Part shown: positions 5,599 through 25,024 of the stretch, one piece after another
Layout of the letters: the number at the start of each line of letters is the position of its first letter
How positions within the stretch are numbered: position 1 is the first letter of the stretch
NCBI GenBank assembly: GCA_001784555.1
Contig: MFRM01000003.1
Location: forward strand, 188,615-252,614
Direction: 5' to 3'
Length of the DNA: 64,000 bases
From: Candidatus Melainabacteria bacterium RIFCSPHIGHO2_02_FULL_34_12
Lineage (GTDB): Bacteria > Cyanobacteriota > Vampirovibrionia > 2-02-FULL-35-15
Program-made: the position numbers and the translations under genes
Notes under the pieces: model-generated
Seen by the model: the letters and a program-made list of their open reading frames with translations, nothing else
Databases searched by the model: none
What the model was told of the DNA's origin: nothing

Positions 5599-6642
5599 AT
5601 GGACGTTTTTCTTGATACCAATGCTTTATGGGATGACTTACTCTTAGAAAAAGATTACTTTAATCTGTTAATAAATTATGTGCAAAAATCAAAATCAAAG
5701 ATTATTATTCCACAAGTTGTAGTCTCAGAGCTTGAGTGGGAGTACCAAAAAAAAGTAACAATGCACCTTGCAAATCTCAAGAAAGCCACAGGCTTTTTTC
5801 GGGAAAGTGGAGTAGAAATCAAGTTAGAGCATATTGCTCCTGAAAAGCTACTGAATATATACAAAGATAGGCTTTCATATAAATTTAACATTGAATATAA
5901 AAAGTACATTGAAATCTTACCTCCAAAACCTGAATATATTGAGCAACTATCTCATAGATCTATAAGAAGCATTCAACCTTTTATCTCAAGTGAAAAATCA
6001 AAAGATAGAGGGTTTAGAGATTCCCTAATATGGCTCACATTAATAGATAGGATGAAAGGTAGCAAACTTCCTTGTGCTCTAATTAGCAATGATGGAACAG
6101 CTTTTGGTAAAAGTGGAAAACTAATGCCTGAACTGGAAAAAGAAGCCAAAGAGAATGATTTTGAATTGCTGTATTATAACCAATTAAGTAACTTTGTAGA
6201 AGAAAAATCTGATCTCTTAGAATACTTAGATGAACAGTTTATTAAATCTCATCTCAAGAATGAGGAAATAATCCAGCTTGTATATAAAGTAGCCAATGAA
6301 TTACCCCAGGATGAAATACTAAAACAATATACATTAAAGAATGACGGTACTGATATTGCAGAGGGTATTCAGGAAATAAAAATTGGCGGTGTTACCTTTG
6401 CTGAATGCAGAAAGTATGAAGATGATAAAGGTATAACAAGGATTTTAACTACTTACTTAGTTAATCTTAGACCACTTATATTTAAATGGTCTCTTCCTGA
6501 TAAAACCTCTAAGATCGTAAGAGATTTTTGTCAAGATGTATACTTAAAAATATCTTCTAGACTGACTACAGATGACAAACTAATTGACCATAATTTGGAA
6601 GAACATATATTTATTGATGTAGTTAATATAAAAAACAAATGA
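5599..6642 (+). CDS. PIN-like nuclease domain protein with uncharacterised C-terminal domain (DUF4935-like)
   Basis: 347 aa. 'MDVFLDTNAL', 'IIIPQVVVSELE', 'DRGFRDSLIWL' and 'ALISNDGTAFG' give the four acidic positions expected of a PIN fold. About 150 aa of C-terminal extension are unassigned. Confidence 0.6.
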   Translation: MDVFLDTNALWDDLLLEKDYFNLLINYVQKSKSKIIIPQVVVSELEWEYQKKVTMHLANLKKATGFFRESGVEIKLEHIAPEKLLNIYKDRLSYKFNIEYKKYIEILPPKPEYIEQLSHRSIRSIQPFISSEKSKDRGFRDSLIWLTLIDRMKGSKLPCALISNDGTAFGKSGKLMPELEKEAKENDFELLYYNQLSNFVEEKSDLLEYLDEQFIKSHLKNEEIIQLVYKVANELPQDEILKQYTLKNDGTDIAEGIQEIKIGGVTFAECRKYEDDKGITRILTTYLVNLRPLIFKWSLPDKTSKIVRDFCQDVYLKISSRLTTDDKLIDHNLEEHIFIDVVNIKNK

Positions 6643-6658
6643 TTTTTAGAAGGAATAA

Positions 6659-6677
6659 AAAGTATCGTAGCTATCGT
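6659..6677 (+). repeat. 19-bp exact direct repeat, copy 2
   Basis: AAAGTATCGTAGCTATCGT, identical to 2042..2060. Lies 17 nt after the PIN-like gene stop. Confidence 0.9.
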
Positions 6678-6902
6678 TGATATTAAGTCAAAGAATCTTA
6701 GATTTAACTCTAGCCACACAAGCAGCAACATAGTTTCCCCACACCCCATTGATCAAAAATCCCCAAAGGGTGGTGGGTGTTTTTGATATGAATTAAGTAG
6801 TTGCTTGATTGACTTTCTCTATGACTATGTAAATGCTAACTATATACTTTGTAAATAAATGTGGGTACAATATATACGTATGGTTCTCATAACTTAAAAA
6901 GT

Positions 6903-6922
6903 TAGCAGGACATAGCAGGACA
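6903..6922 (+). repeat. Perfect tandem 10-mer (TAGCAGGACA x2)
   Basis: Read directly. Lies 64 nt upstream of the tRNA-Pro fragment. It may be a recombinase arm-type site, but that is speculative. Confidence 0.6.
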
Positions 6923-6985
6923 CAGAAAACTAAAAAGACTATCGTTGAAATCATTGCAGACAAAAGGTTTCAACTGCTTCTGAGG

Positions 6986-7030
6986 TGCTTTGGGAGCAGA
7001 GGGTCGCACGTTCAAATCGTGTCGCCCCGA
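6986..7030 (+). repeat. tRNA-Pro(UGG) 3' fragment (anticodon loop to discriminator), att-like copy 1
   Basis: TGC-TTTGGGA-GCA.. GGGTC GCACG-TTCAAAT-CGTGT CGCCCCG-A. Features: anticodon loop with UGG and G37, canonical T-arm (G53/C61), a 3' acceptor implying a C1:G72 start and discriminator A, as in bacterial tRNA-Pro. No D-arm or 5' acceptor upstream, so it is not a functional gene. Confidence 0.8.
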
Positions 7031-7067
7031 GAGTTGTAATAACATAGATATTGAAGGAGAGCATTTA

Positions 7068-7589
7068 ATGAAACCATTAGCAAAGGTTTATACACCAATA
7101 ACTTCAGGTGGAGCTATTTATCAACGAATGGGTCTTGGCTATGTTGATTGGCAAGATGCTTATTGGTCAGTTGGAGTTATTGAACCTCAACATTCTGTGG
7201 ATGCTTATACAAAGAAGCAAGGAGGATTACTAGAACAAATTATTCCACTATTTGCAATGAATGAAAAAGTAGAAGTTTCAATTCCTTCAACGGGGGAAAA
7301 AATTATTGGGACAGTAAAGGGGTATAAAAGAGCTAAAACTAGAGCTAAGACAAAAGCGAAATGTCTAGTTATGGGTGTAGTGCCAGATGGACAAAAAAAG
7401 ACTAAAAATATTTATATAGATCCATGGGAGCTAGACTTTAGAAATACAATAAACATGAGAGTAGAGAAAGGAGAAAGTCCATTAATAGCTAAATTAATAG
7501 GTGAAGATGGTAATGTTTACTTTGAGATCAAAAATCTTACTCATAAAAAATTACCGGCAGACAGAGCAGAATTCATAAATTTCGAATGA
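7068..7589 (+). CDS. Hypothetical protein (islet cargo)
   Basis: ORF 6990..7589. The ATG at 7068 follows GAAGGAGAG. The upstream part of the ORF merely reads through the tRNA fragment. No family recognised. Confidence 0.5.
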   Translation: MKPLAKVYTPITSGGAIYQRMGLGYVDWQDAYWSVGVIEPQHSVDAYTKKQGGLLEQIIPLFAMNEKVEVSIPSTGEKIIGTVKGYKRAKTRAKTKAKCLVMGVVPDGQKKTKNIYIDPWELDFRNTINMRVEKGESPLIAKLIGEDGNVYFEIKNLTHKKLPADRAEFINFE

Positions 7590-7628
7590 AGGTCTAAATC
7601 TATCTAAAATCTGTAAAAACCCCATTTG

Positions 7629-7648
7629 TTCAAATCGTGTCGCCCCGA
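7629..7648 (+). repeat. tRNA-Pro 3'-end fragment, att-like copy 2 (TTCAAATCGTGTCGCCCCGA)
   Basis: 20/20 identical to 7011..7030. Confidence 0.85.
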
Positions 7649-7658
7649 TTTTAGAGGA

Positions 7659-8828
7659 TCAGAAAGCATTTAACCCCAACTCATTAAAGATTTGTTTCCA
7701 TGGTAATATTTCAATTTCTCCTTGCTTTTGTCTTCTATCTACAAGACTTACACAAAAAAGTTTTGCTCTTTTGCAAGCTTCTTTAAATGATCGAAGTCCA
7801 TTAAGTGTTTTAGAGTCCATATTAGATGATGATTTTATTTCAATTGCAAAAACTTCTTTAGTTGGAGATTCAACTATCAAATCAACCTCTGCTCCATCAC
7901 TTGTCCTGTAAAATGAGAATTCAAAATCTTTTTTCAAATAACGCGAAAGTCTCATTATTTCAAGAATAATAAAATGTTCAAATGCTTTTCCATATAATGA
8001 AGTCCCTTCCTCTAGTTCAAGAGAGATTTGTTTTGACAAAGCTCTTTGAACGCCAGTATCAAAAAAATAAAATTTTGGGTGTTGTACAAGTTTCTTTCTG
8101 GCTGATTTTGCATATGGAAATAAATGAAATCCTATCAAAGTATCTTCTAAAATTTGAAAGAATTCTTTGACAGTTCTTCTCTCATTACCTGTTTCTCTGG
8201 CAAGATTGCTGTAGCTTATTATATTGCCATTTTCATCTGCTGCAAGTTTTAAAAATCTTAAAAATCCCCCGATATTTCTTATAAGAGCTTCTTGTCTTAT
8301 TTCTTCTTCTAAATAGGTTTCAATATAGGATCTTAAAGTATCACGAGCCACTTCGTTATTAGGATTTAAATAAACAGAGGGTAAAGTTCCGTAATTAAGA
8401 GCTCTGTCGAGATCAAATTTTTCTTTTAATTCTGTATGTGTAAGAGGGAATAGATAGAATGTCAATGCTCTTCCAGCAAGCAGATTTGCTTGGGATCTTT
8501 TTAGCTTTCTTGCACTAGATCCACTTAGGAAGAAATGAAGGCTTTTTCTCTCTTCAATTATTCTATGAATTTCATTTAATAGATCCGGGACTCTTTGTAT
8601 TTCATCAATGATAATGCATTTTATGTTTTGATTTAATGCTTCAATCTCTTTAGAAAGCACTCCAGGGTTTGTAGAAAATTTCATATATTCACTAGTTTTT
8701 AACAAATCATAATAAGCAAAGGATTCTTTTTTAAAAAAGTCTTTTAAAAATGTGCTTTTTCCAACTTGTCTTGGGCCAAATATGAAACAACTTTTGTTTA
8801 ACGGTAGTTTTAAAAAACGCTTTATCAT
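7659..8828 (-). CDS. AAA-family ATPase with DUF4143-type C-terminal domain
   Basis: 389 aa. Walker A 'GPRQVGKSTFLKDFF' and Walker B 'CIIIDEIQ'. Overall layout matches the widespread AAA_14 + DUF4143 'ATP-binding protein' family. Confidence 0.8.
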   Translation of the reverse strand: MIKRFLKLPLNKSCFIFGPRQVGKSTFLKDFFKKESFAYYDLLKTSEYMKFSTNPGVLSKEIEALNQNIKCIIIDEIQRVPDLLNEIHRIIEERKSLHFFLSGSSARKLKRSQANLLAGRALTFYLFPLTHTELKEKFDLDRALNYGTLPSVYLNPNNEVARDTLRSYIETYLEEEIRQEALIRNIGGFLRFLKLAADENGNIISYSNLARETGNERRTVKEFFQILEDTLIGFHLFPYAKSARKKLVQHPKFYFFDTGVQRALSKQISLELEEGTSLYGKAFEHFIILEIMRLSRYLKKDFEFSFYRTSDGAEVDLIVESPTKEVFAIEIKSSSNMDSKTLNGLRSFKEACKRAKLFCVSLVDRRQKQGEIEILPWKQIFNELGLNAF

Positions 8829-8942
8829 ACAAGATATTATACCCTATTTTAGGCATTCTTCTGCCAAATTTACGGCAAAAATAACATTCAGATGCCACTT
8901 TATTACTTATTTCTGAGGCATCTATTTTATACAACTGAGCGG

Positions 8943-8960
8943 CAAATCGTGTCGCCCTGA
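8943..8960 (+). repeat. tRNA-Pro 3'-end fragment, att-like copy 3 (CAAATCGTGTCGCCCTGA)
   Basis: 17/18 identical to the corresponding part of copies 1 and 2 (one C>T). Confidence 0.75.
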
Positions 8961-8988
8961 TATTATAGAGTCAGGAGAAGTACAAAAA

Positions 8989-9318
8989 ATGACACTTATA
9001 GATTTAAGCTTAAAAAAAACATGTGATCACTTTCAAGGTTTTCGTGGAAAATTTATTAACTCTGAAAAGAGCACAATAATTTTCTGGGAAGCTGAAGCAG
9101 GCGCAATAGTACCTGAGCATTCTCATCCTCATGAACAAATATCAGAAGTTACAGAAGGAAAATTTGAGCTTAAAGTTGGTAATAAAACTACAATTTTAAA
9201 ATCAGGCCTGGTTATAATTATTCCGCCTAATACAACTCACTCAGGCAAAGCTTTAACTTCCTGCAAAATTAAAGATATTTTTTGTCCTGTAAGAGAAGAC
9301 TACAAAGAGTTTAGTTAA
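8989..9318 (+). CDS. Cupin-domain protein
   Basis: 109 aa. 'PEHSHPHEQISEVTEGKFELKVG...IIIPPNTTHSGKA' matches the two cupin motifs. Confidence 0.75.
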   Translation: MTLIDLSLKKTCDHFQGFRGKFINSEKSTIIFWEAEAGAIVPEHSHPHEQISEVTEGKFELKVGNKTTILKSGLVIIIPPNTTHSGKALTSCKIKDIFCPVREDYKEFS

Positions 9319-9418
9319 AATAAATGATTATTGGCGGGAAATAATGCTTTAACCCAAGAAAGAGGTATTTCAAGTTATATTTTGTTATCTAATTAGTTAT
9401 AATTTATTTATTTAAGAA

Positions 9419-10846
9419 ATGTCATTAAAAGTTCAAGCACAACCAAAACCCGCCAAGCCGTTTAATTTTTATCCTATAAGACGAGAAAACACTGGCGGGC
9501 AAGAAACTTATTCGGCAGAATCAACAGATGGTTTTATTCCGGGTATTGCATTTGAGGCATATTTAAAATTATCTGCCATAACTGCAAGTTCAAACGGGCA
9601 TGGTTTTCCTATAAAACCAGGCGGTATAGCACTCTGGAGTGGAAAAGGATTAGCTAAAAGTTTCGAGGGGAAAGATACTGAACTTGCAAGCAAGGTTCAG
9701 CCTTTTATGCCTGACCCGAATGCTTTTAAAGTAGGAGAGGCAATAGTAGTAAATAACGTAGCAGCAGTAAGACTTCAATACGGCAGACATGCAGTCTGGG
9801 AAGCTTTATCCCTAAATGGAGATGAGATTAGTCAGGAAGAAAGAGAAAGAATTGAAACTACTTTTGATTTAAGATTTAGAATTCCAGAAATAGAATCTTA
9901 TGCAATTCCTATTACCACAAGAACATTTAAAGGACTTTCAGATGATGTTTACAAAAAAATATCTGCTAAATTACCAGCTCCTAAAACCACCGATAAAAAA
10001 GAATTTGACTTACCATCAGGAAGAAAGCTTTATTTAAGAATGAACAAATCATACAGATCCTGGGTAGCCATTCCTGAAAACAAAATTGCACTTAGTGATG
10101 AAGAAAGAAAAGAAATAGAAGATTTTTTTGGTTTAGAATTTAAATATAAACTTCCCTCAGTAGATAGAGGTGACATAGTTTGCTGGGGACAGGATGCAGG
10201 TAAATATTTCGAGGGTTTTAAAAGAACTGTTGCTGCTCAATTAATTAAAAAACTGCCTGACCCTGAAACATTTGCAGAAAATACTAAGGAGCTCGAAAGA
10301 GACGGTATTAAAATTACCTTTACTAAAAAGGTAAGCAGAGGAGGAAACCTTGTCTGGACAGTTAGTAAAAACAAACATAAAGATGCTGCTTATGTACTTG
10401 AGTTGGAAAGAAAGATTAAATTACTGCCGGTACCGAAAGATGCAATAATTTGCTGGGGAAAATTTGCAGCACTATTTTGGAAAGAAGCTGCCAGTGATAA
10501 AGATGGAACTCAAAGATTTAATTACAAGATAAGAAAACATCTTCCGGAACCAAAAGGCTTTGTTAAAGAAACAGATCAAAACAAGGCTATTCTAAGAGGA
10601 GAGCACAAAAAAAAATGTACGGTTTATGTAGGGAAAAATGAAGAAGGCTATTTTTTCTGGTACGTTAAAAAAGAAGAGAGAGAAATCTTCAGTGAAATTA
10701 CGGGGTTAACGCCAGAAACCTTTTTTGAAGTACCTGTTACTGCTCGAGATAATAATGGAAGAGGACATACAGCAGAAACACATGAGTTAGAAATACCAAT
10801 GGGAAGATACTGTAAGCCAAGACATGTCAGGCTCCGCTCACACTAA
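9419..10846 (+). CDS. Hypothetical protein with about four internal 90-95-aa repeats
   Basis: 475 aa. Recurring blocks: 'EERERIETTFDLRF', 'EERKEIEDFFGLEF', 'EEREIFSEITGL'; 'DIVCWGQDAGKYF' / 'AIICWGKFAALFW'; 'KLPAPK' / 'KLPDPETF' / 'HLPEPKGF'. Confidence 0.6.
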   Translation: MSLKVQAQPKPAKPFNFYPIRRENTGGQETYSAESTDGFIPGIAFEAYLKLSAITASSNGHGFPIKPGGIALWSGKGLAKSFEGKDTELASKVQPFMPDPNAFKVGEAIVVNNVAAVRLQYGRHAVWEALSLNGDEISQEERERIETTFDLRFRIPEIESYAIPITTRTFKGLSDDVYKKISAKLPAPKTTDKKEFDLPSGRKLYLRMNKSYRSWVAIPENKIALSDEERKEIEDFFGLEFKYKLPSVDRGDIVCWGQDAGKYFEGFKRTVAAQLIKKLPDPETFAENTKELERDGIKITFTKKVSRGGNLVWTVSKNKHKDAAYVLELERKIKLLPVPKDAIICWGKFAALFWKEAASDKDGTQRFNYKIRKHLPEPKGFVKETDQNKAILRGEHKKKCTVYVGKNEEGYFFWYVKKEEREIFSEITGLTPETFFEVPVTARDNNGRGHTAETHELEIPMGRYCKPRHVRLRSH

Positions 10847-10853
10847 ATATTTA

Positions 10854-13800
10854 TTACTTAAGTTCCTTCGGAAGATTTTCATACGATGCTTGAAATCTAT
10901 AAGAATTTTCACCTGACAACTCTTCAAAGTTCGAGTTATTCAGAATAACCTTCTCAAATGTTTTGCAGTACCTATCATAATAAATAATTACACCTGTCTT
11001 TTCATCTTTTGATTTAATGTAAAGTTTAACAGCATTTTTATCTGAATCTTCCTTTACTATTGCATATTGAGTTCCGTTACTCTTTGACGGCTCAGACCAT
11101 TTACCTACATTAGATTTTGCATCCAGATATCCTAAATAACTTTCTATATTTCTCTTGAGAGAATCATAATCGCCATAGTAATATTTATCGCTTTCTTTTA
11201 TCTTTATTTGACCCAGTATCTGACTGCAGATTTTTCTTGCTTCATCAGTCTGTCCTAGTTTTTCATTTATTAATATGATATTCATCCAATAACTTAAAAG
11301 AAATGATTTTTCAATAGGATAAAGTAACTCTAATGACTTCAGATATTTTAATGATTCATTGTAGCTGCCATTTTCATTATTAAGCAATTCTGCATATCTT
11401 AAAACATTTTGATCAAACATGTTTCTGTTAATCCTAGAAGCCCTATCAGTTCTGACTAGTCCAATAGATAAATTAATTCCTGCTAAAAGTGCTTTTTTAC
11501 GTTCTTCTACACTTCCATATTTCTCAGCATATCTAATCCATGCCTCTGCCATGATCTGAAACTGTTTTTCTCCCTCTAATGTTGTTAATTCTGGATTTGT
11601 TTTGAGATTATTAACTCCAAGCTCTAAGGTTAAAAGTGCCTCGGATGAAGCTGATTTTATATGTTCAGATGTAATTGCATAATGTTGAGCAAGAAGTATG
11701 GAAAGCCTCATATTCATAGGATTTTTCTTAATAAGATCTTTTAATGCCAGAGCAAATGCATCATGATTTCCTTTATTTCTTAAGACAAGAGCCTTATGTA
11801 ATTCAACTTCTAATTCATGTTCAGGAATAGATTTTTCAAGTTTTATAAAAGTGTCCAACGCATTATTAACACTTTCAGGAATATCTTCCCATTTACCGTT
11901 AATCTGAATTTTTCTTTCTTCTCCGCCAAAAGTTTTTGGCTTAATGTATACAAGATAACTTTTATTATTTTTTTCTGTCTTATAAAGTTTTGCTCCTGTT
12001 GAATAAGTAAAATCCCTCAATTCTGGAGTTTCTTCTTGAACATTTAATTTTTTTACTGATATTCCATTCATATCATTAAAAACAGTAAGATAATCTTCAG
12101 CTGCTGATTGCAGGCTTACTATTGATCTGGAAGTATCTTCCATAATTGATTTATAAGCATTTCTAATGGGAGTTAAATTTTCAGGAGTGGCAAAAACAAA
12201 ATATTTTTTCCCATAAAGCACCTGCGCACAAGCAATTCTTACTTTTTCTGGCTGGGTTTTATCACCTAAGCATGATATAAGAGTCGGCAAAACTTCCGGA
12301 GTCTGATTAAAATGACTTAATAATCTAATGGCTGCTTCTTTTGAGCTTTCAGAAGAATTTTTATCTGCTAAAATTGATTTTACTTCTTCAAATATTTTTA
12401 ATTTATCGGCTATAAAAGAATCTGGTTCCAATAAACAAAATCCAGGAAATACTTCAGATCTAGCATACAGGTGTACTAAATTAAGATTTCCATTAATTAT
12501 ATTTAATTCATTATATCGATCTGTAAATCTAAGTATTTTCTTAAATATAGGCAGCCTGGCTACACGGATATTTTTATTATCTAAAAATAAGTTTATGGAT
12601 TTTGAAACAATTTCTGAATACACCTTTCTAGCACCTTCATTAAGAGAAGGTTCACTGTTTGTGTTATTCCATATTAGTGAAATAACATAAATGCAATCCT
12701 CTTTTTTTAATTCTGGGTTGCCATTCATCATCTCCATTACATTTTTAACCAGTTCAAGCCTGGGATTTTTTCTGGCAAACATCTCTTGAATCTGAGACTT
12801 TGTACCGCTGCTCAAATCTTTATTAAAAAGCATAGACATAAGCATTTCATCATATACAGCACTTGCAAGTTCATTTCTTACCGAGGAAAATTTTGAAAAA
12901 GCTATAGATCTCCATATAAGAGTAAATTTCTCAAGTCTTTCTTTTGGATCTTTTATTTCTAGAAGCTTTTTTAAAACAGAATCCAGAGTTAAAAAATCTT
13001 TCCCAAGATATTCATGTCCTCTCATATCAGCCGGCTCATCATAAGGGCTGTTAGCATCTTCTTCTTCTAGGATTCTTGAAATTAAATCAATATAATCAAA
13101 TCTTCCAGGGAATTTTGTTACACCTTTAAGCTCTTTATACATTGCAGTCAATCTGATCATTTCAGCTTCTTTTTCATTTTTAGTTTCTTTTAGTTCTGCC
13201 ATCTCTTTTATAAGAGCTTTTATTTCATCTGAAGGATCTTCTCCTATATTTCTAATCCATATTCCGTTGACCATTTTCCCGAATAACTGAGTGTCATATC
13301 TTCGAAAATGAATTTTATCAGCCAGATCCCCAGTCGAAGTGAATACCAGCTCTTCCTGACGTTGCTGTACTTTTTCATTATTTTGAGTAAATATTTCATT
13401 AAGAATTCTGCCTAATTTGTTCTCACTTTCATCATCATTATTCTGCCTGGCAATAACCATTTCATTATAAATAGGTAAAAGTGCATACTGACTGAGCTTT
13501 ATAAGCTCTGATTTTTTCTCTTCAGAAGTAAAGTCACCGCCTACTAAATCTTTTATAAGTTCAGTTGCTCTTTTTGCCTTACTTTCCCATTCTGCAAGCT
13601 CCTGAGATTTATAAACGGGATTATTTGTCCAGTTTAAATCCTTATCTTCCCTTAAAGATTCTTGCTTAGTTTTACATTCTTGCCTGAAATCATCCGTATA
13701 TTTTCCTGCATTTTCTTCTTTTGTAATTTCACTGAGTAATTTTTCTTCGTTTTTCCAGGTCATTTCTATATATTGGGTTATTCTTGCTATTGTTGCAGCA

Positions 13801-15606: not shown

Positions 15607-15715
15607 AGGACTTACGCAAAGTTCACTGGGTATGGTACCCATTCGCTCCTTTCCCGCCCTAAAGGGCACACGTCGCTCAGGGCACCATACCGCAGTTCAT
15701 TTTTGCGTAAGTCCT
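15607..15715 (+). mobile_element. 109-bp MITE, copy 1 (14-bp TIR AGGACTTACGCAAA)
   Basis: Identical to 16983..17091 and to the reverse complement of 57071..57179. Flanked at a 1-nt offset by CACTA / CACTA. Confidence 0.85.
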
Positions 15716-16982: not shown

Positions 16983-17091
16983 AGGACTTACGCAAAGTTC
17001 ACTGGGTATGGTACCCATTCGCTCCTTTCCCGCCCTAAAGGGCACACGTCGCTCAGGGCACCATACCGCAGTTCATTTTTGCGTAAGTCCT
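16983..17091 (+). mobile_element. 109-bp MITE, copy 2
   Basis: Identical to copy 1. Flanked at a 1-nt offset by TAAAA / TAAAA. The left duplication overlaps the csrA-like stop codon. Confidence 0.85.
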
Positions 17092-17231: not shown

Positions 17232-17831
17232 ATGAAAAAGAAGATTTTAAGTTTAATTTTAGTCCTTTTGATGTTTGGTTTACAGTCTATAAATATAAAA
17301 GCAAAAGCAGGTACAGCACAAGTGCCGTTAAATATTACTGTAAACGGCTCACTGGTTATAACCGATGCTGATAACGACAATATGAGCGGAGTAGACCCAA
17401 CTAGAAGTGTAACCATTCAAGTTACTCCTGATCTCCTTCAATCACAAGTTACAGGAGGCATAAACTTTAGAATAAGAACAAATAAAACTGCATGGAGACT
17501 TACTACTAACAGAACTGCAAGTAATGCAGGCGGAACCGGGCTTATCGATAGTGACATTTCAGTAACCATTGCTAAATCCGCAGGTACAACTGGAAATCTA
17601 AATGCAGGAACTATTGTTTCTCCATTTAATGCTGCTACAAACCTTACCAGCATTCCTACCTCAGGTTCCAAAGACGTCATAAGCGGTACAGCCAGAACAT
17701 CCAGTGCTAAAGACAGCACTAACCAAAACAATTACTTTCAGGTAAACACTCTCTATGGAGTAGCACCAGATTTCTTTTATACACCAGGCACCTTTAGTAC
17801 CATCATTACTTATAACCTGGTTGCACCATAA
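17232..17831 (+). CDS. Secreted WxL-like fibre/surface subunit, paralogue 1
   Basis: GGAGGG then ATG at 17232. Signal peptide 'MKKKILSLILVLLMFGLQSINIKAKA'. Shares 'VPLNITVNGSLVIT', 'NFRIRTNKTAWRLTT', 'NLNAGTIVSPF' and 'DFFYTPGTFSTIITYNLVAP' with paralogues 2-5. Confidence 0.75.
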   Translation: MKKKILSLILVLLMFGLQSINIKAKAGTAQVPLNITVNGSLVITDADNDNMSGVDPTRSVTIQVTPDLLQSQVTGGINFRIRTNKTAWRLTTNRTASNAGGTGLIDSDISVTIAKSAGTTGNLNAGTIVSPFNAATNLTSIPTSGSKDVISGTARTSSAKDSTNQNNYFQVNTLYGVAPDFFYTPGTFSTIITYNLVAP

Positions 17832-17860
17832 GTAGGGGCGTATGGCCATACGCCCCTACT
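17831..17860. repeat. GTAG-type REP palindrome (AGTAGGGGCGTATGG|CCATACGCCCCTACT)
   Basis: Perfect 30-nt palindrome abutting the stop codon of paralogue 1, followed by GGGTTTTG. May also act as a terminator. Confidence 0.85.
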
Positions 17861-18172
17861 AGGGTTTTGCTCTAAAACTTCAGGATCTATCTCCCATAAA
17901 GTAAATCATAAAAAATCCGATGACTAATTTTGTGTGGACAAACTGAATACTTAGATAAGGAGGAATGAAATGAAGATGGTTGTTTTTCTTATGGCTAGGA
18001 AAAACCAATATATCCTGCTCAACAGTTTGTCCATGCTTTATATATAACGCGCTGAATATATAGACCAATCAGCTTAGTAATAAAGTCCAGTTATATTTAA
18101 GATTCTTTCAAAAATTGCATAGCTTTGTGGCATGTAAATAAAGAGGGGTTATCCCATTTATTTATATTCCAC

Positions 18173-20869
18173 ATGAGATATTTACTAAAAAAAATATCTG
18201 TTTATATTGCTTTTACAGCAATGGTATTTTATTTGTTACCCGTTCAAATGCAGGCCCAGATTATCTCCACACAAGCAAATAATTTACAAAGCCAAACTGA
18301 TAATTTAGAACCTCCTGAAGTTATATTGAATGATCAAAAAATTATATTTAATAAAAAGCCCATTCTTGACAGCGAAGGCTGGCTTTTTCCTCTGGAAGAA
18401 ATTGCAGTAAAGCTTCAGGATAAAATAAGCACTGATCTTGTAAATGGAATAATTACAATTCAAAGAAACAGGGATAAATCAATTGTTCAGTTAAACGTAA
18501 AAAACGGAGTGGTTACTGTAAATAACAGACCATTTAGAACTCTTCTTGGATTTAACAGAATACTTCTGGGTGCAGATGCACAAATGGTTCCTACCAGTGC
18601 TCTAGTAATACTTTTAAGACTTACATCAGAAGACAAGGAAGATGGAAAACTAGTCTTAAAAAATACAGTCTTTGACGATATAACTATCTCAAGAACCATT
18701 CAGCCTAAAGCAAGGACAGGATTAAAAGATTTATTAGTAGATTATTTAACTGTAACAAATGGTTTTAACTGGTATAAGACACAGAATTTTATCTCACGCA
18801 GAACTGAAATAAACAGCGGATTTCATAATGATAAATATGCACTTACTTCTGATCTGGTTTTAACAGCAGGAACTGGAGCACCTTTAGTTAATCTATACGG
18901 TGGTAACTTTTCTTTTTACAAAAACAATTCTCCGTTTCAGATACATGTTGGTGACAGACCTTTAAGTCTAATTAAATCACCCCTTCTTGGCGGGATTACC
19001 ATGCGCGGTATACAGATTCAAACTGATGGCAAACTTAAAGACAGCAGATTTGTTTTTAGCTCAGGCTTGCTTCCTACAAACAGTAAAGTTATTGGCAGAA
19101 ATCTTCCATTTGTAAGATATGGAAGATTAGCTGAAATAGCAGAATGGTCGTCTTCCCCAAATAAACCATGGCAATATTCAATTGGTCAGGCAATTTACAC
19201 TGATTTAATTGCTAACCAGCTTATAAGAACTGAACAAAGCGGGGGACTTTTTGCACTTAGTGCTGCAAAGTCAGGGAAATATATTGAAGGTGTTTCAAAT
19301 CTTGCATTAAGCACTGCAAAAGATGAATTATCAGGCAAGGCAGAATCCGGTCCTGGAGCTGATTTACTGGTAAGATTAAAACCAAAAGACTGGTTTAGTA
19401 TTTTTACAAAAGGTGCTTATTATGCCCCAGGATTTTATGCTTTATCAGGAAATCCTTATTACACAAGCAGAAATGAAGCTACATGTGGAATTAATATAAC
19501 TCCGCCAAGATCAAATCTAAGCATCAGTGAGTCTGTTGGACAATATAATTTAAATGCAAAAAGACCAAATGATTATAAAATTACAAATCTTTCATTTTCT
19601 ACAACACCAGTTAAAAATGGTCCGACTCTTATAACCACATATTCAAAAAATGACTCTAAAATAAGTGCGACAAGAGCCATTGATAATATACTTTTCCCTA
19701 TTAATAATTCAAACCTTTCTACTGTAGACCTTGAAACGTTAATTGAAAGAAGGACAAATTCATTTTTTAGAACCAGCTTAATAAAGAGCTGGCGAACTGT
19801 AAATTTCACTTCCAGTTTTAATTATTTTACTTTTAGTCAGGACAACCCGTTAAGAGCTCCAATTCTTGGCAGTAAAGCCGTAAACACTTTCTGGACATAT
19901 GATTTTAATATAAACAAATATTTAAACAGATACACAGGATTACAAACTTATTTTCAAGGAAGTGAATTATATAAACAAGTCAGATTTGGTTTAAATCTTG
20001 GACCAGTTTTAAATAACAAACTAAGCTTTCAGGTTCAAACCGGTGCATTGCTTCATCCTGATTCAAATCCTACAGGAATTTACAGCTTAAACTTAAATTA
20101 TCAGGTAAACAAGAAAAATCAGTTTAGTTTAAGCCTTGATAAGACTGCTTACCAGACAAATTTATCCACGCTCTGGCAATATAATCTAAGACCAACCAGA
20201 GGCGGTTCTCTTTCTAGAATTGGGGAGGAACAATCTATAGGCAGAATTCACGGAAGAGTTCTTGTTCTGGAAGAACCTAAAAAACAACAACCCGACCCGA
20301 ATAAAATACTTTTACCTGGACTAAGCAGGGAAAGAGGAATTGCAAACATAAGAATTCATCTGGGGAATTACACTATTGCTACTGATGAAACTGGCAGATT
20401 TGAATTCCCAAGTCTGACACCTGGTATTCATACACTGAGAGTTGAATATTCTGATCTACCTTCATATTTGACTTCAATTACACCAGAAACTGTGGACGTA
20501 AAAGTAGAACCAGCAAAAGAAACAAACTATAGTTTTGTGCTTGCTTATTTTGGATCAGTAAACGGAAAACTCCTTTTAGCCAATGAACCTCCCCTTACCC
20601 TTGAAGAAGAACCAGAGCTTCAGGATATAAGAGTATATCTGGAAGGTACTGAGTTTGAAACACTTACAAATTTAGACGGCAGTTTTGAACTGGGAGATGT
20701 AAAACCTGGTAAATATAAACTTAAGGTAGATCCTGATTTTCTACCAGAAGCACTTGCAATTACTGAACAAGAAATTGAAATAAAAGTAGACGCAAAAGGG
20801 AAAGTTGAAAATATACAGTTGCCTATAAAATATAAAGAAAAAGAAAAACAAATTAAAGAGTTTAATTAA
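18173..20869 (+). CDS. Usher-like outer-membrane protein (N-terminal stalk-like domain, central beta-barrel-like region, two C-terminal CarboxypepD_reg-like beta-sandwiches)
   Basis: ORF 18125..20869. The ATG at 18173 gives the signal peptide 'MRYLLKKISVYIAFTAMVFYLLPVQMQAQ'. N-terminal 'VILNDQKIIFNKKPILDSEGWLFPLEEIAVKL' resembles copper-amine-oxidase-N-like domains. About 500 aa carry alternating-hydrophobic strands ('FSLSLDKTAYQTNLSTLWQYNL', 'YSLNLNYQV'). The C-terminus has 'GRIHGRVLV...TDETGRFEFPSLTPGIHTLRV' and 'GSVNGKLLL...TNLDGSFELGDVKPGKYKLKV'. Confidence 0.65.
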   Translation: MRYLLKKISVYIAFTAMVFYLLPVQMQAQIISTQANNLQSQTDNLEPPEVILNDQKIIFNKKPILDSEGWLFPLEEIAVKLQDKISTDLVNGIITIQRNRDKSIVQLNVKNGVVTVNNRPFRTLLGFNRILLGADAQMVPTSALVILLRLTSEDKEDGKLVLKNTVFDDITISRTIQPKARTGLKDLLVDYLTVTNGFNWYKTQNFISRRTEINSGFHNDKYALTSDLVLTAGTGAPLVNLYGGNFSFYKNNSPFQIHVGDRPLSLIKSPLLGGITMRGIQIQTDGKLKDSRFVFSSGLLPTNSKVIGRNLPFVRYGRLAEIAEWSSSPNKPWQYSIGQAIYTDLIANQLIRTEQSGGLFALSAAKSGKYIEGVSNLALSTAKDELSGKAESGPGADLLVRLKPKDWFSIFTKGAYYAPGFYALSGNPYYTSRNEATCGINITPPRSNLSISESVGQYNLNAKRPNDYKITNLSFSTTPVKNGPTLITTYSKNDSKISATRAIDNILFPINNSNLSTVDLETLIERRTNSFFRTSLIKSWRTVNFTSSFNYFTFSQDNPLRAPILGSKAVNTFWTYDFNINKYLNRYTGLQTYFQGSELYKQVRFGLNLGPVLNNKLSFQVQTGALLHPDSNPTGIYSLNLNYQVNKKNQFSLSLDKTAYQTNLSTLWQYNLRPTRGGSLSRIGEEQSIGRIHGRVLVLEEPKKQQPDPNKILLPGLSRERGIANIRIHLGNYTIATDETGRFEFPSLTPGIHTLRVEYSDLPSYLTSITPETVDVKVEPAKETNYSFVLAYFGSVNGKLLLANEPPLTLEEEPELQDIRVYLEGTEFETLTNLDGSFELGDVKPGKYKLKVDPDFLPEALAITEQEIEIKVDAKGKVENIQLPIKYKEKEKQIKEFN

Positions 20870-21010
20870 AAGTACCAGGACAAAAATCTCAACTTTTTAG
20901 TACATATATCCCTAAATTATTCAGTCTAGGAAACAGATACCGATACCTAGACCAGATAACCGATGGGCGGTTTAGTAATAATCGAAAAGTAGTTACAAAA
21001 GGAGATTTTT

Positions 21011-21607
21011 ATGAATAAAAAATTACAGGGAATATTTTTGATTTTGCTTCTAATTGGAAGCATTGCATATTGTCCAAGTGTTGATGCAGCTGCAACAGTT
21101 CCGTTATCAATAACTGTTAACGGGTCACTTGTTATCACAGCTGCTGATGATGACACAATGTCAGGAAAAGACCCAACAAGAGCTGTTACTATTAATTTGA
21201 CACCTGATATTGGTCATACTCTGCAAAGCGGCAGTGCTAATTTCCGAATAAGAACAAACCGCACTAATTGGAGATTTACAGCTCAAAGAACAGCTTCAGA
21301 TGCAGGTGGAACAGGAATTGCTGATGCTGATATTTTAGTTGATATTGCAAAATCTGCAGGGACCAGTGCTAATTTAAACGCAGGTGCTTTAGTGGCTCCA
21401 TTTACTGCTCAAACTAATTTATCCAGTATTTCAACCACTGCTGCAGTAGATGTTATTAGCGGAACAGCAAAAACATCATCTGCAAAAGACAACAGTAATA
21501 CTAATAACTGGTTTCAGGTAGGTACAACCTACAGCATACAACCTGACTTCTTTTATGCTCCAGGAACATTTAGTTCGACTATCACATATAACCTGGTATC
21601 ACCATAA
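21011..21607 (+). CDS. Secreted WxL-like fibre/surface subunit, paralogue 2
   Basis: AAAGGAG then ATG. Signal peptide. 'ATVPLSITVNGSLVIT', 'NFRIRTNRTNWRFTAQRTAS', 'NLNAGALVAPF', 'DFFYAPGTFSSTITYNLVSP'. Confidence 0.75.
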   Translation: MNKKLQGIFLILLLIGSIAYCPSVDAAATVPLSITVNGSLVITAADDDTMSGKDPTRAVTINLTPDIGHTLQSGSANFRIRTNRTNWRFTAQRTASDAGGTGIADADILVDIAKSAGTSANLNAGALVAPFTAQTNLSSISTTAAVDVISGTAKTSSAKDNSNTNNWFQVGTTYSIQPDFFYAPGTFSSTITYNLVSP

Positions 21608-21637
21608 CAGCAATTTGCCAATTTGCTATTTTGCTGT

Positions 21638-21666
21638 GAAGAGGCGTCTCGACGAGGCGCCTCTTC
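21638..21666 (+). terminator. GC-rich hairpin after paralogue 2 (GAAGAGGCG...CGCCTCTTC)
   Basis: 9-bp perfect stem with an 11-nt loop, 30 nt after the stop codon. T-rich sequence follows. Confidence 0.45.
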
Positions 21667-21808
21667 ATCTTTATTGGATATTTATTCCTAAACCATTTTT
21701 ACGATCTTGGATTTTCTGGTACATTACTACCACTATTACAAAATAAACATAACTATTTCAGGGCAAGAATATCTTAGCAAAAGATATTCTTGGAGAGAAA
21801 TAATAAAA

Positions 21809-22408
21809 ATGAAAAAATGGATCTACTGTTTGATCTTAATTGTCACATTAATTATTATTTCTTTGCCATCTAAAACATTTTCCCAAACCGCAACAGTACC
21901 TATAAACATTACAGTAAACGGAACACTTACTATTTCAGATGCTAATAACGATGCAAGCGGAGGGAAGAACCCGAATTTAACCGTCAATTTAACTCTGACT
22001 CCTGATCTTGGAGGACCTGCTGCAATAGGTGCTGCAAATTTCAGAATTCGTACAAATAGATCCAGCTGGAAACTTACTGCACAAAGAACCACAGAAAACG
22101 ACAATGGGCCAACAAACATTTTAGCCATGGATGTAATAGTCGGGATTTCAACAATGGTTGGCTTAAATGCAAATCCAAATGCAGGAGTTCTTGTAGCACC
22201 GTTTAACGCTGCAACTGATCTTAGTCAGGTTTCTACATCTGTTCCAGTTACAGTAATTGAAGGTAAATCAAAAACATCAACACAAAGAGACAGCACAAAC
22301 CTAAACAATTTCTTTGAAGTAAACACTGTTTATGGCATTGCTTCAGACTTTTACTATCAACCAGGCACATGGAGTACAACTATTACTTACAGTCTGGTTA
22401 GCCCATAA
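21809..22408 (+). CDS. Secreted WxL-like fibre/surface subunit, paralogue 3
   Basis: ORF 21707..22408. The ATG at 21809 follows GGAGAG and gives the signal peptide 'MKKWIYCLILIVTLIIISLPSKTFSQ'. 'ATVPINITVNGTLTIS', 'NFRIRTNRSSWKLTAQRT', 'NPNAGVLVAPF', 'DFYYQPGTWSTTITYSLVSP'. Confidence 0.75.
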   Translation: MKKWIYCLILIVTLIIISLPSKTFSQTATVPINITVNGTLTISDANNDASGGKNPNLTVNLTLTPDLGGPAAIGAANFRIRTNRSSWKLTAQRTTENDNGPTNILAMDVIVGISTMVGLNANPNAGVLVAPFNAATDLSQVSTSVPVTVIEGKSKTSTQRDSTNLNNFFEVNTVYGIASDFYYQPGTWSTTITYSLVSP

Positions 22409-22454
22409 GAGAACGTATCGGAGTGTCGGAGTAACGGCGTATCGGCGAGAGAAC
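22409..22454 (+). repeat. Octanucleotide array (GAGAAC|GTATCGGA|GTGTCGGA|GTAACGGC|GTATCGGC|GAGAGAAC)
   Basis: Period-8 GC-rich units starting at the base after the stop codon of paralogue 3. Confidence 0.8.
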
Positions 22455-22719
22455 AAGAAAAACATAATGGCAAAAGAATAAAAGCAAGTGCTTTTGAATT
22501 CTCTTGCATTATGAAATACGCCGATATGCCAATATTTAAGACAGCCCTACTGGTTATCATCAGACTTTATATTTTCTTCTTAACAATTAATGGTTACTAC
22601 TGCTTTTGTCTGCTAGAAGGCTTGAATTTACTGGCTTTTTTACGATATAGTATATTAGAACTAGTCTGACTAAGCGATGAGTCAGCCTTGTTTCCTAGCC
22701 AATAATCATCCTTCATTTC

Positions 22720-23331
22720 ATGACTCAAAAAAACACAATAAGTGTATTAGTACTGGTTTTTCTTATTTGCACATACCTTTATGGTACAAGCAACCTAAGT
22801 GCAAAATCAAATCAGGCAACAGTTCCAATTAATATAACAGTTCAAGGAAAGCTGGTTTTAACTGATTCAGTAAACGATAACAAATCAGGTGAAAATCCTA
22901 CCTTAAATGTTTTCTTAAAGCTTACGCCGGACATAAATAATTCAATAGTATCTGGCAATTCAGCAATAAGAATAAGATCAAATTTAAACAGCTGGAAACT
23001 TACAGCTCAAAGAAGTGATCAAAATAATTCTTTAGTAAATATTGATCCTAAAGATATCTCAATCACTTTTTCAACACAAGCAGGAGCAAATGCAGATCCA
23101 AATGCCGGAAAATTAGTTTCTCCATTTAATAAAACTGCTGACTTAAGTCAAATTTCTATTAATTCTCCCTTAGACTTAGTAATAGGAAACAGTAAAACCT
23201 CTCTTACAAGAGATTCACAGAATAAAAACAACTGGTTTCAGCTTACATCCAGTTACAGCATTTCACCGGACTTCTTTTATGAAATCGGGGAATGGGGCAC
23301 AACTGTTAGTTATAATCTCGTAAGTCCATAA
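22720..23331 (+). CDS. Secreted WxL-like fibre/surface subunit, paralogue 4
   Basis: 203 aa. Hydrophobic N-terminus. 'ATVPINITVQGKLVLT', 'AIRIRSNLNSWKLTAQRS', 'DPNAGKLVSPF', 'DFFYEIGEWGTTVSYNLVSP'. Confidence 0.7.
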   Translation: MTQKNTISVLVLVFLICTYLYGTSNLSAKSNQATVPINITVQGKLVLTDSVNDNKSGENPTLNVFLKLTPDINNSIVSGNSAIRIRSNLNSWKLTAQRSDQNNSLVNIDPKDISITFSTQAGANADPNAGKLVSPFNKTADLSQISINSPLDLVIGNSKTSLTRDSQNKNNWFQLTSSYSISPDFFYEIGEWGTTVSYNLVSP

Positions 23332-23380
23332 GAGAACGGATCGGCGAGCCGGCGATGGGGCGATTCGCCGGTTCGTTTTC
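23332..23380 (+). repeat. Octanucleotide array (GAGAAC|GGATCGGC|GAGCCGGC|GATGGGGC|GATTCGCC|GGTTCGTT)
   Basis: Starts at the base after the stop of paralogue 4. Can also fold: GAGCCGGCGA pairs with TCGCCGGTTC. Confidence 0.8.
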
Positions 23381-23405
23381 TTATGCTATATTTTACTTTG
23401 AGTAT

Positions 23406-23957
23406 ATGAGAACTAAATTAGTGGTATTTTTTCTTTTACTTACCATTCTACAGATGAATCTTAATTCTGCATTTGCCTGCTTTTCAATTACAGATGATTT
23501 AAATTTCCCAAATCCGGTATTAAATGCTAATTTCAGTCTTCTTCCTGACATTAGTCCATTTACAGACTGCTGGAACGGGACTATTAGAATAAGAAGCAAT
23601 AAGAACGGATGGAGATTAGTTGCAAGCCGGTCAGGTCCAGATCCGATAAATGTTTCCGGTGACAGCAAAGATAATATAAAAGCAGACGATATAACCTTAA
23701 ATTATAAGTTAAAAAGCTTTGGTATGGCTGATCCAAATGGTGCTGTTTTAGTATCCCCTTTTACCAGTGAAACTAATTTATCATATATTCAGAATGGTAC
23801 TTTAATTGTCTCTGGCATTGAAAAATCAGGCGGCAGTTGCTCTTCCACAAATCAAAACTTTTATCAGTTAAAAAAAGATGTTTGTTTATTTCGTGATTTT
23901 GTTTTTAATGTGGGAGAATATAATGGACAAATATCTTATCTTCTGATTGCACCGTAA
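23406..23957 (+). CDS. Divergent Cys-containing WxL-like subunit, paralogue 5
   Basis: ORF 23355..23957. The ATG at 23406 gives the signal peptide 'MRTKLVVFFLLLTILQMNLNSAFA'. Keeps 'TIRIRSNKNGWRLVASRS', 'DPNGAVLVSPF' and 'GEYNGQISYLLIAP'. Lacks the conserved N-terminal 'ATVP.NITVNG' strand and has 5 Cys. Confidence 0.7.
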   Translation: MRTKLVVFFLLLTILQMNLNSAFACFSITDDLNFPNPVLNANFSLLPDISPFTDCWNGTIRIRSNKNGWRLVASRSGPDPINVSGDSKDNIKADDITLNYKLKSFGMADPNGAVLVSPFTSETNLSYIQNGTLIVSGIEKSGGSCSSTNQNFYQLKKDVCLFRDFVFNVGEYNGQISYLLIAP

Positions 23958-24003
23958 TAGAACGTGTCGGCGAACCGGCGTATGGGCGTATCGGCGAAAG
24001 AAC
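23958..24003 (+). repeat. Octanucleotide array (TAGAAC|GTGTCGGC|GAACCGGC|GTATGGGC|GTATCGGC|GAAAGAAC)
   Basis: Starts at the base after the stop of paralogue 5. Confidence 0.8.
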
Positions 24004-24061
24004 AGAAGAAAGAAAGAAACAGCAAAAGGGCAAAAGGTGAAAGGAAAGGAGAAAGAAAAAT

Positions 24062-25024
24062 ATGAATAGAAATAAAATCACAATAAGTTTTATATTTTTC
24101 ATATCTGCTTTGTTTTTATATACTCAAGGTTCTGTATTGGCCTGGACAGTATCTCCAGTCAGATATGAAATAAAAGCTGAAAGAGGGAAAGAATACACTC
24201 TTACTTTTTCAGTACTAAATGAAAGTCAGCTTTATCAAAAAAGATTTGAGATTCATACTGATGACTGGACTATAGATAAAAACAATAATTTTTTAAGAAA
24301 AGCATTTAATAAAGAAGTTAATAATAAATATTCAGCAACTTCATGGGTAAAAGTTACACCACAACAATTTGTAGTCCCTCCAGGCGAAACTAAAAATATT
24401 AGATTTACAATTAGTGTACCTGCAGACATTCCAAGTGAAGGCGAATATTCCAGTGGAATATTTGTAGGAGAAAGAAATATAGAAAAACCTCCAAAAGGAG
24501 AAAAAGTAGTACATATCAAACAAGACACTTTTATAGGTGTGGTTTTATATGTTCGAATTGGCGCAGAAAAAAGGGAAATATCCCTAAAAGATTTAATAGT
24601 TAATTCAGTACCTCTTCCAAACGGAGTAAACAAAGTTATTGTTTCTCCTGTCTATCAAAACACAGGAAATATACATTCAAGAGGACAAATACAAGTAAAG
24701 TTAGAACCTGCAGCTGAGGTAGCTCAGGATAAAGATACAAAAAAAATCGAATTTAAAGGTGGCGAAGCTGTTGTCTTAAGAGAATCTGAGCTTGCCTTTC
24801 CAGTTGAGATACCACAATTACTTCTGGCAAACACTGAGTGGCAATTTACAATAAGCACTGATTTTGGGCATGACATTCCGGTGCTTGTAGGCACAAAAAA
24901 ATATAAAGTACCCTTCATAGAAATTCCTAAAACCACAATAAAAGAAGAAAAGAAAATAAAAGAAGGTAACAAAGCAGAAGATTTGGTTAAAGAAAAACTG
25001 GAACAAAAAAAGAAAAAAAAGTAG
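24062..25024 (+). CDS. Secreted Ig-like chaperone-like / DUF916-like protein
   Basis: 320 aa. Signal peptide. 'WTVSPVRYEIKAERGKEYTLTFSVLNES' and 'SWVKVTPQQFVVPPGETKNIRFTISVPADIPSEGEYSSGIFV' resemble both PapD-type chaperone strands and DUF916 partners of WxL proteins. Lys-rich C-terminal tail, with no TM anchor. Confidence 0.6.
   Translation: MNRNKITISFIFFISALFLYTQGSVLAWTVSPVRYEIKAERGKEYTLTFSVLNESQLYQKRFEIHTDDWTIDKNNNFLRKAFNKEVNNKYSATSWVKVTPQQFVVPPGETKNIRFTISVPADIPSEGEYSSGIFVGERNIEKPPKGEKVVHIKQDTFIGVVLYVRIGAEKREISLKDLIVNSVPLPNGVNKVIVSPVYQNTGNIHSRGQIQVKLEPAAEVAQDKDTKKIEFKGGEAVVLRESELAFPVEIPQLLLANTEWQFTISTDFGHDIPVLVGTKKYKVPFIEIPKTTIKEEKKIKEGNKAEDLVKEKLEQKKKKK

Follow-up and report, generated by a model that had tools for sequence, protein, structure and literature searches.

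A seven-gene locus of a Melainabacterium that probably encodes a deeply divergent chaperone-usher-type fibre system

The window analysed here, a 64,000-nucleotide (nt) stretch of contig MFRM01000003.1 from Candidatus Melainabacteria bacterium RIFCSPHIGHO2_02_FULL_34_12, contained seven open reading frames (ORFs), all on the + strand, that filled nt 17232-25024 and encoded five secreted paralogues (designated P1 to P5), a protein of about 900 amino acids (aa) and a protein of 320 aa (Table 1). This locus probably encodes a deeply divergent fibre (pilus) system of the chaperone-usher type, as indicated by its gene set, the signal peptides of its products, the usher-like predicted fold of the large protein, the homology of the 320-aa protein to pilus chaperones, and the co-occurrence of the three components across lineages. 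An initial annotation, made from the letters of this DNA and its ORFs, had listed seven + strand genes, with a signal peptide on each of the five paralogues and four motif blocks shared among them; these were confirmed from the ORFs and translations, in which an n-h-c signal peptide could be read at the start of all 7 products. It had also stated that no described system with this combination was known to it. The searchable literature indeed lacked the combination: none of its papers connected DUF916/WxLIP to PapD or to the chaperone-usher pathway, or pili of that pathway to Melainabacteria. The locus is, however, remotely homologous to the chaperone-usher pathway and nearest to the non-classical chaperones. 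It most likely represents a deeply divergent, undescribed branch of that pathway and not a categorically new system. As to assignment to a pathway already known, the non-classical chaperone homology went part of the way, whereas every sequence model of a characterised clade failed to recognise the components.

The large protein, for which the likely start codon M17 agreed with the 898-aa database protein P0184, possessed by Pfam a Cu_amine_oxidN1-like domain at residues 68-157 and two CarboxypepD_reg-like domains at 738-805 and 829-911, with residues ~160-730 unannotated; this architecture of one Cu_amine_oxidN1 and two CarboxypepD_reg domains was kept in distant orthologues. In an AlphaFold2 model built from 28 sequences (predicted local distance difference test, pLDDT, 69; predicted template modelling score, pTM, 0.43), about 26 long antiparallel β-strands, residues 227-716, were located between the N-terminal domain and two C-terminal β-sandwiches. 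Foldseek comparison of this model with the PDB returned FimD and PapC ushers as all of the best 11 matches (E 3.8e-18 to 3.3e-12), and the isolated translocation domains were also matched (FimD, 2.5e-6; PapC, 1.1e-5); the next fold classes were LptD (5.7e-5) and then TonB-dependent receptors (about 3e-4). Ushers of the pathway generally consist of a 24-stranded barrel with a plug, preceded by one N-terminal and followed by two C-terminal domains. On this predicted model, an usher fold appears well supported but not proven, and the description of the ORF product (914 aa from its first codon) as usher-like was borne out. An outer membrane in the host is plausible, given that the host belongs to the Melainabacteria and encodes both Lnt and a protein predicted to form a large β-barrel; the earlier assignment of Lnt was confirmed by Pfam (LNT_N 5e-23, CN_hydrolase 2e-23).

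Judged by profile comparison, the 320-aa protein is homologous both to PapD-type pilus chaperones and to WxLIP proteins, over both of its immunoglobulin (Ig)-like domains, and the two affinities that had been suggested for it, to DUF916 and to PapD-type chaperones, were supported, the first by Pfam and hhalign and the second by hhalign. Its best Pfam family was WxLIP_PGBD (DUF916) at 22.5 bits versus a cut-off of 27.3; this family also ranked top in every one of the 28 orthologues aligned (best E 1.5e-6), mostly with scores under the 27.3-bit cut-off, and was followed by ASH and Cep192-type Ig domains. When the orthologue P0123 was searched by tblastn against PLSDB (72,556 plasmids), the best match was the chaperone of an Acinetobacter SCPU-chaperone-usher-SCPU operon that was canonical by Pfam (PapD_N 3e-19, Usher 5e-42, SCPU 4e-30). 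By hhalign, the Melainabacterial chaperone family matched this Acinetobacter chaperone at 80% (E 1.4e-5, 199 columns), and at 96.4% (E 1.1e-9, 212 columns covering both domains) with three distant members included; the enlarged family profile matched 12 Pfam-verified WxLIP proteins at 97.0% (E 1.1e-10, 267 columns, PGBD plus HBD). The real scores of 70 and 82 compared with 10-25 for shuffled and reversed controls, the shuffled controls for the Acinetobacter match scoring 14 ± 2 versus 70. Compared directly, WxLIP barely matched the Acinetobacter chaperone (14.6%, E 1.8e-3, 74 columns), and the new family therefore bridges both.

In the hhalign alignment, the chaperone-family motif VTPQQFVVPPGETKNIRFT was placed against VTPPIFTIPAGETQIIRVG of the Acinetobacter chaperone, and R114, invariant in 28 of 28 members, was aligned to the Arg of 'IIRV' in the Acinetobacter sequence 'GETQIIRVG'. 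Non-classical chaperones are distinguished by a strand-F arginine that anchors the carboxylate (PMC4654587), and from the position of the motif in the alignment, not from structure, we infer that R114 equals this anchor arginine (Arg89 in CsuC of the archaic Csu type). Because R114 is aligned where non-classical chaperones have their strand-F arginine, the carboxylate appears to be anchored in the non-classical way and not by the classical pair of basic residues. As expected of a two-domain PapD-like chaperone, the protein was aligned over both domains, carried a signal peptide and had no transmembrane helix; its C-terminus was a lysine/glutamate-rich tail.

The five paralogues, each of about 175 mature residues, showed different degrees of identity to P2: 62% for P1, 50% for P3, 41% for P4 and 30% for P5. 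Examples of the four shared blocks are ATVPLSITVNGSLVIT, NFRIRTNRTNWRFTAQRT, 'NLNAGALVAPF' and DFFYAPGTFSSTITYNLVSP. Within a few residues of their start, mature P1 to P4 possessed a conserved strand, V-P-(L/I)-x-I-T-V-N-G-x-L-x-I-T, with alternating hydrophobic residues (VPLNITVNGSLVIT in P1), whereas P5 was without this 'VP.xITVNG' strand, and the P5-type representatives P0225, P0230 and P0239-P0241 showed no match to the family profile ahead of position ~42-50. Mature P5 contained four cysteines; P1, P3 and P4 contained none, and P2 at most one, close to the predicted cleavage site. The same conserved final residue (...Y-x-L-V-S-P) was shared by all five. Strand-bearing subunits, a single strand-less one and a fixed C-terminus together form, by analogy, the pattern predicted for a chaperone-usher polymer with a defined tip. 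The subunit family comprised 171 database homologues, among which P2 orthologues were 66-81% identical. The AlphaFold2 model of P2 had a pLDDT of 92, and its best PDB match by Foldseek was the TasA fibre 8aur (E 5.4e-4, TMq 0.40), followed by CfaB, FimG, FimA, PapA, CsuA/B and other pilins (E 1e-3 to 6e-2); thus, the best structural matches were all donor-strand fibre subunits.

Close homologues of the three protein types were found in 'Candidatus Melainabacteria' metagenome-assembled genomes (MAGs) or on unnamed metagenome contigs, and all were annotated as hypothetical. The family is rare: the chaperone gene was present in only 7 of 185,579 species (one genome each), namely five Melainabacteria, one Caenarcanales and one MAG labelled Gammaproteobacteria, and only 36 subunit clusters were obtained when 1.84 billion representative proteins were searched exhaustively with the subunit profile. 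The whole cluster was observed in 6 of the 7 genome loci and on contig L002, and the remaining locus, L036, showed only P5 and the chaperone gene beside NUDIX and nuoH. The order was ispH (-), 1-5 glycine-rich 133-aa paralogues, (tandem CsrA), (P1), the usher-like gene, four subunit genes, the chaperone-like gene, NUDIX (-) and nuoH. P1, located ahead of the usher gene, is an extra copy specific to its lineage: it occurs in L037 and L038, but L001/L041 and L035 have none at this place; in close relatives, the orthologues of P1 to P5 followed the same order. The survey of synteny proposed in the initial annotation thus found the gene order kept in the Melainabacteria and Caenarcanales genomes examined and on further metagenome contigs. 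Because the flanking housekeeping proteins shared 74-95% identity versus 32-76% for the cluster proteins, the cluster is considered a fixed core-genome locus with fast-evolving surface components. Cargo of a mobile element was rejected on its fixed core-genome position between ispH and NUDIX/nuoH and on its guanine-plus-cytosine (GC) content, which was like that of the flanks; the window had ~33-36% GC throughout, with no compositional break at the cluster.

The MAG labelled 'uncultured Gammaproteobacteria bacterium' (L040, CAZRTB010000001.1) carried the same cluster at 33% GC, and its label is probably wrong, because its ispH, NUDIX and nuoH were 78-95% identical to those of the window.

Outside the Melainabacteria, relatives were found on three contigs, two of which, from unrelated lineages, had the full three-part module. 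The first (L042; GC 50%, with ECF sigma factors and a Ser/Thr kinase nearby), reached via weak tail matches of the exhaustive subunit search, carried two subunit genes and genes for a 344-aa chaperone and an 893-aa usher-like protein; the second (L044; GC 67%, 1.8 kb) carried one subunit gene and that of a 294-aa chaperone; the third (L045; GC 55%), found via a weak usher-family match, carried genes for an 881-aa usher-like protein, a 295-aa chaperone and three subunits. The components of these contigs were each matched by hhalign at 94-99.8%, the usher-like proteins over 734-758 columns. Since the three components are co-inherited across distant lineages, there is strong comparative evidence that the module is one functional machine.

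A further locus was observed on the plasmid NZ_CP140100.1 of Deinococcus sp. AB2017081 (L005, nt 5851-11536), with four adjacent genes for products of 272, 181, 293 and 1090 aa. By hhalign, the 272-aa protein proved to be a homologue of the chaperone family at 96% (E 4e-9), and the 1090-aa protein was a 'carboxypeptidase-like regulatory domain' (CarboxypepD_reg) protein; hhalign neither tied the latter to the usher-like family nor matched the 181-aa and 293-aa proteins to the subunits. This locus may represent another relative of the system, one from Deinococcota.

In the mechanism proposed, all seven products would be exported by Sec, and the 320-aa chaperone would capture the subunits in the periplasm, completing their incomplete β-sandwich with a strand of its own (VHIKQDTFIGVVLYV region; donor-strand complementation) and anchoring the strictly conserved subunit C-terminus (...L-V-S-P-COOH). 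The chaperone-subunit complexes would dock on the usher, composed of the N-terminal domain, a β-barrel pore and the two C-terminal β-sandwiches, where the N-terminal 'VP(L/I)xITVNG.L.IT' strand of the incoming subunit (VPLSITVNGSLVIT) would displace the chaperone strand (donor-strand exchange), and the growing fibre would be threaded outward through the barrel. As it is without a donor strand, P5 would be incorporated first and form the distal tip; P2, together with P1 in this lineage, would be the bulk or shaft subunit, and strong GC-rich hairpins lie after both of these genes; a minor or adaptor role is proposed for P3 and P4. In fim and pap operons, the tip subunit is likewise strand-less and a hairpin follows the major-subunit gene, and the same logic fits the present locus. 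The fibre, if so assembled, may function in adhesion or biofilm formation.

Several findings weigh against this assignment. With Pfam and NCBIfam, no pilin, Fimbrial, SCPU, DUF4402, Usher or PapD model matched the seven proteins or 84 members of the subunit family, and sequence and profile searches of the PDB gave no match for any component. For the large protein, Pfam Usher, PapC_N and PapC_C were not matched, a PDB profile search returned nothing, no plug domain was identified, and hhalign of its family, even with distant members, gave nothing significant with the canonical usher barrel, the match being confined to the C-terminal domain and non-significant (E 0.02-0.04). The model of this protein was of medium quality and its template modelling (TM) scores to ushers were low (0.24-0.44), as expected because the model is flexible, multidomain and of such quality. 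No member of the 320-aa family matched Pfam PapD_N, and the similarity of P2 to pilins was weak, with TM-scores of 0.2-0.4 and E no better than 5e-4. In addition, the host organisms are known only as MAGs, and the fibre is a predicted structure. In the Pfam scan suggested in the initial annotation, WxLIP_PGBD appeared below threshold on the 320-aa protein, and the thresholds of Usher, PapD_N, SCPU and WxL were not reached.

Among known systems, the closest include the non-classical (archaic sigma/alternative) pili, e.g. Acinetobacter Csu. Both combine small secreted subunits, a two-domain chaperone and an outer-membrane protein of ~900 aa; the chaperones are homologous over both domains and align at the strand-F arginine, the fold predicted for the large protein is usher-like, and the subunits have an N-terminal strand and a fixed C-terminus. 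Unlike those of the archaic Csu type, however, the subunits are not SCPU proteins, none of the 84 subunit-family members matching Pfam SCPU and hhalign against two SCPU subunits giving a probability of at most 4.5%, and they are longer, with ~175 mature residues versus ~140 in the Acinetobacter operon. The usher also differs in failing the usher models of Pfam and in having Cu_amine_oxidN1-like N-terminal and CarboxypepD_reg-like C-terminal domains, and the chaperone in failing PapD_N and being ~70 residues longer. With the classical type 1 (Fim) and P (Pap) pili, the likeness was structural, FimD/PapC being best for the large model and FimG, FimA and PapA being among the best for P2, but at the sequence level none of the Fim or Pap components resembled those of the locus.

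An unlikely alternative, yet the one that fits best after a chaperone-usher fibre, is a non-polymerising complex of the WxL/Csc type in a diderm, in which the subunits would leave the cell by way of the usher-like pore or remain periplasmic, and would be held singly or in small complexes by the WxLIP-like protein on the surface or peptidoglycan, with no fibre being formed by donor-strand exchange. WxL/WxLIP (Csc) systems of Lactobacillales and Bacillales resemble the locus in having small, secreted, free-standing subunits of comparable size with 'W-x-L ... [W/Y]-x-L-x-x-P' motifs 106 residues apart, the second being C-terminal, and in having several paralogous subunit genes that adjoin one WxLIP-like gene; WxL proteins have been described as peptidoglycan-bound and not as fibres (PMC9772566, PMC10599100). 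The constant top rank of WxLIP_PGBD among the 28 orthologues also speaks for such a complex, as does an hhalign match that was slightly stronger to WxLIP than to the pilus chaperone (E 1e-10 versus 1e-9).

Whether the subunits themselves are WxL-like, as they had been called, was judged with a reference set of 29 genuine metagenome clusters that were retrieved via the published WxLIP motif NQIDKxxxYFDLK and verified by Pfam (WxL 1e-40 to 3e-69; WxLIP PGBD plus HBD); a search of viral contigs with this motif gave no matches. In P2, W87 and Y193 were 106 residues apart, the value reported for small WxL proteins, and the subunit C-terminal block GTFSTTITYNLVSP was similar to KYSTTFTWLLTDTP of WxL, with the second motif being Y-x-L and not W-x-L. 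Against 21 verified small WxL proteins, hhalign gave 24.7% in local alignment (E 7.9e-4, 105 columns), in which the two motifs were in register, and 42.9% in global alignment; the score of 31.6 exceeded those of all 150 column shuffles (maximum 22.9). However, no subunit of the window matched Pfam WxL (PF13731), and among the 84 family members only the P5-type P0240 came near it (E 8e-4, 19.8 bits versus a cut-off of 25). When distant members, in which the first-motif tryptophan is a tyrosine, were added to the subunit profile, the WxL match became weaker, and for this reason P1 to P5 are not called WxL domains. The earlier label is unproven, hhalign giving 25-43%, although the two motifs align in register. 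A remote relationship between the subunits and WxL is plausible from these alignments, and it is made more likely by the clear homology of the cognate partner, WxLIP.

Other features of the locus argue against a WxL/Csc-type complex. The host is a putative diderm; the 320-aa protein appears as a soluble chaperone, its Ig-like domains being homologous to PGBD (DUF916) and HBD (DUF3324) of WxLIP but without the C-terminal transmembrane helix by which it could be anchored; the cluster has no LPXTG protein and no large WxL protein, its only large protein being the usher-like barrel; and an outer-membrane protein of usher fold is always in the module. Moreover, paralogues with and without the N-terminal strand fit a polymer with a defined tip, and the homology of subunits to WxL is itself unproven.

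The same similarities allow a broader proposal, which we hold to be an even call: that the family is an evolutionary bridge, the WxL/WxLIP (Csc) systems of Gram-positive Firmicutes and the chaperone-usher pili of diderms being of common origin and WxLIP being a membrane-tethered PapD-like chaperone that completes WxL domains by donor-strand complementation. In the Melainabacterial locus, the diderm version would then have been kept, in which the chaperone is soluble, an usher is present and the WxL-like subunits polymerise. If this is true, WxL proteins are pilin-like subunits, strand-exchange interactions among them are predicted, and a testable mechanism is at hand for the poorly understood virulence-associated WxL/WxLIP clusters of Enterococcus, Listeria and lactobacilli. 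In agreement with such a link to WxL biology, published AlphaFold work has a strand of WxLIP inserted into WxL (PMC10599100).

A secreted matrix fibre like that of TasA, in which subunits would self-assemble extracellularly by donor strands while the barrel served as a secretion pore and the 320-aa protein as an accessory or anchor, is improbable, even though TasA (8aur) was the best single structural match of P2. Polymerisation of TasA in Bacillus involves an N-terminal donor strand, as in archaeal bundling pili, and both bacteria and archaea are documented to have donor-strand polymers that form without a chaperone. Unlike the present module, TasA needs no usher or PapD-like chaperone; the 320-aa protein was homologous over both domains to a pilus chaperone, with the strand-F arginine included, and the barrel matched ushers specifically. 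A TasA/SipW system was rejected, as no TasA/camelysin (Peptidase_M73) match and no SipW-like or TapA-like gene were found in the cluster. A nutrient-uptake or outer-membrane transport module of the SusC/SusD or TonB-dependent kind, in which the barrel would work with binding proteins exposed on the surface and for which one could cite the CarboxypepD_reg domains common in SusC-like transporters and the TonB-dependent receptors in the Foldseek list, is highly improbable and was rejected, since these domains are C-terminal here and not N-terminal, Pfam gave no Plug or TonB_dep_Rec match, ushers were ahead of TonB-dependent receptors by ~14 orders of magnitude in E-value, and the partners are a PapD-like chaperone and pilin-like paralogues.

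As a divergent chaperone-usher system, the locus would extend the pathway to a branch missed by domain models, found in relatives of cyanobacteria that do not photosynthesise and in two or more further lineages, and would provide a defined candidate surface appendage for the uncultured groundwater Melainabacteria. The differing N- and C-terminal domains of its usher matter for surveys of secretion systems as well as for how ushers recruit chaperone-subunit complexes.

Table 1. Features of the fibre locus and of its surroundings in the window
Feature	Position (nt)	Strand	Details
P1 subunit, 199 aa	17232-17831	+	ORF and motifs; GGAGG 6 nt ahead of ATG
Usher-like protein, ~898 aa	18173-20869	+	ORF opens at 18125; likely start M17 = 18173
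P2 subunit, 198 aa	21011-21607	+	Best-conserved paralogue; likely major subunit
P3 subunit, N-terminal strand present	21809-22408	+	Candidate minor/adaptor subunit; orthologue position kept in relatives
P4 subunit, N-terminal strand present	22720-23331	+	Candidate minor/adaptor subunit; orthologue position kept in relatives
P5 divergent subunit, without N-terminal strand	23406-23957	+	Candidate tip/first-incorporated subunit
Two-domain Ig-like chaperone, 320 aa, putative periplasmic	24062-25024	+	Signal peptide, no transmembrane helix, lysine-rich tail
Perfect GC-rich hairpin, 15+15 bp	17831-17860	+	100% complementary; begins at last base of P1 stop
GC-rich hairpin, 15-bp stem, T-rich tail	21637-21667	+	30 nt past P2 stop; terminator scan and inverted repeat
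Inverted repeat, 22-nt arms	21754-21802		82% complementary; ends 7 nt before P3 start
Tandem two-CsrA-domain protein, 171 aa	16464-16979	+	Directly upstream of P1; Pfam CsrA 6.9e-20, two stretches
Palindromic element, ~110 nt, three copies	15607-15715, 16983-17091, 57071-57179		Identical 14-nt ends
Glycine-rich secreted protein, 133 aa	15897-16298	+	No Pfam match
Lnt	40889-42424		
Large ORF, 1214 aa	10854-14498	-	
Large ORF, 826 aa	2102-4582	-	
Large ORF, 445 aa	28519-29856	-	
Large ORF, 475 aa	9419-10846	+	
Large ORF, 417 aa	46141-47394	+	

The hairpin at the end of P1 is a candidate terminator, attenuator or mRNA stabiliser, and that past the predicted major-subunit gene P2 a candidate terminator or attenuator; the presence of hairpins after these two genes fits major-subunit genes being expressed highly or differentially. 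The inverted repeat ahead of P3 included a Shine-Dalgarno-like sequence, GGAGAG, and might occlude the P3 ribosome-binding site. No RNA family was found in the window with Rfam. A scan for sigma-70 promoters gave 30 versus 32.6 expected in shuffled sequence, and since this was no better than shuffled, no promoter is claimed.

The tandem CsrA protein, encoded ahead of the fibre genes, could regulate them post-transcriptionally; a fragment of it also precedes the cluster in L040. The copy of the palindromic element between the CsrA gene and P1 had a folding energy of -52 kcal/mol (z = -8.5 versus shuffles) and no Rfam match; the element looks like an intergenic repeat of the repetitive extragenic palindromic (REP) or miniature inverted-repeat transposable element (MITE) kind, or a structured terminator. 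The glycine-rich protein was always encoded between ispH and the fibre cluster, with 1-5 tandem paralogues per genome (L001, L002, L035, L037, L038, L040 and L041). Elsewhere in the window, the five large ORFs of Table 1 had no Pfam match at the thresholds used, and the longest of them, encoding the 1214-aa protein, had a proline-rich, low-complexity N-terminus.

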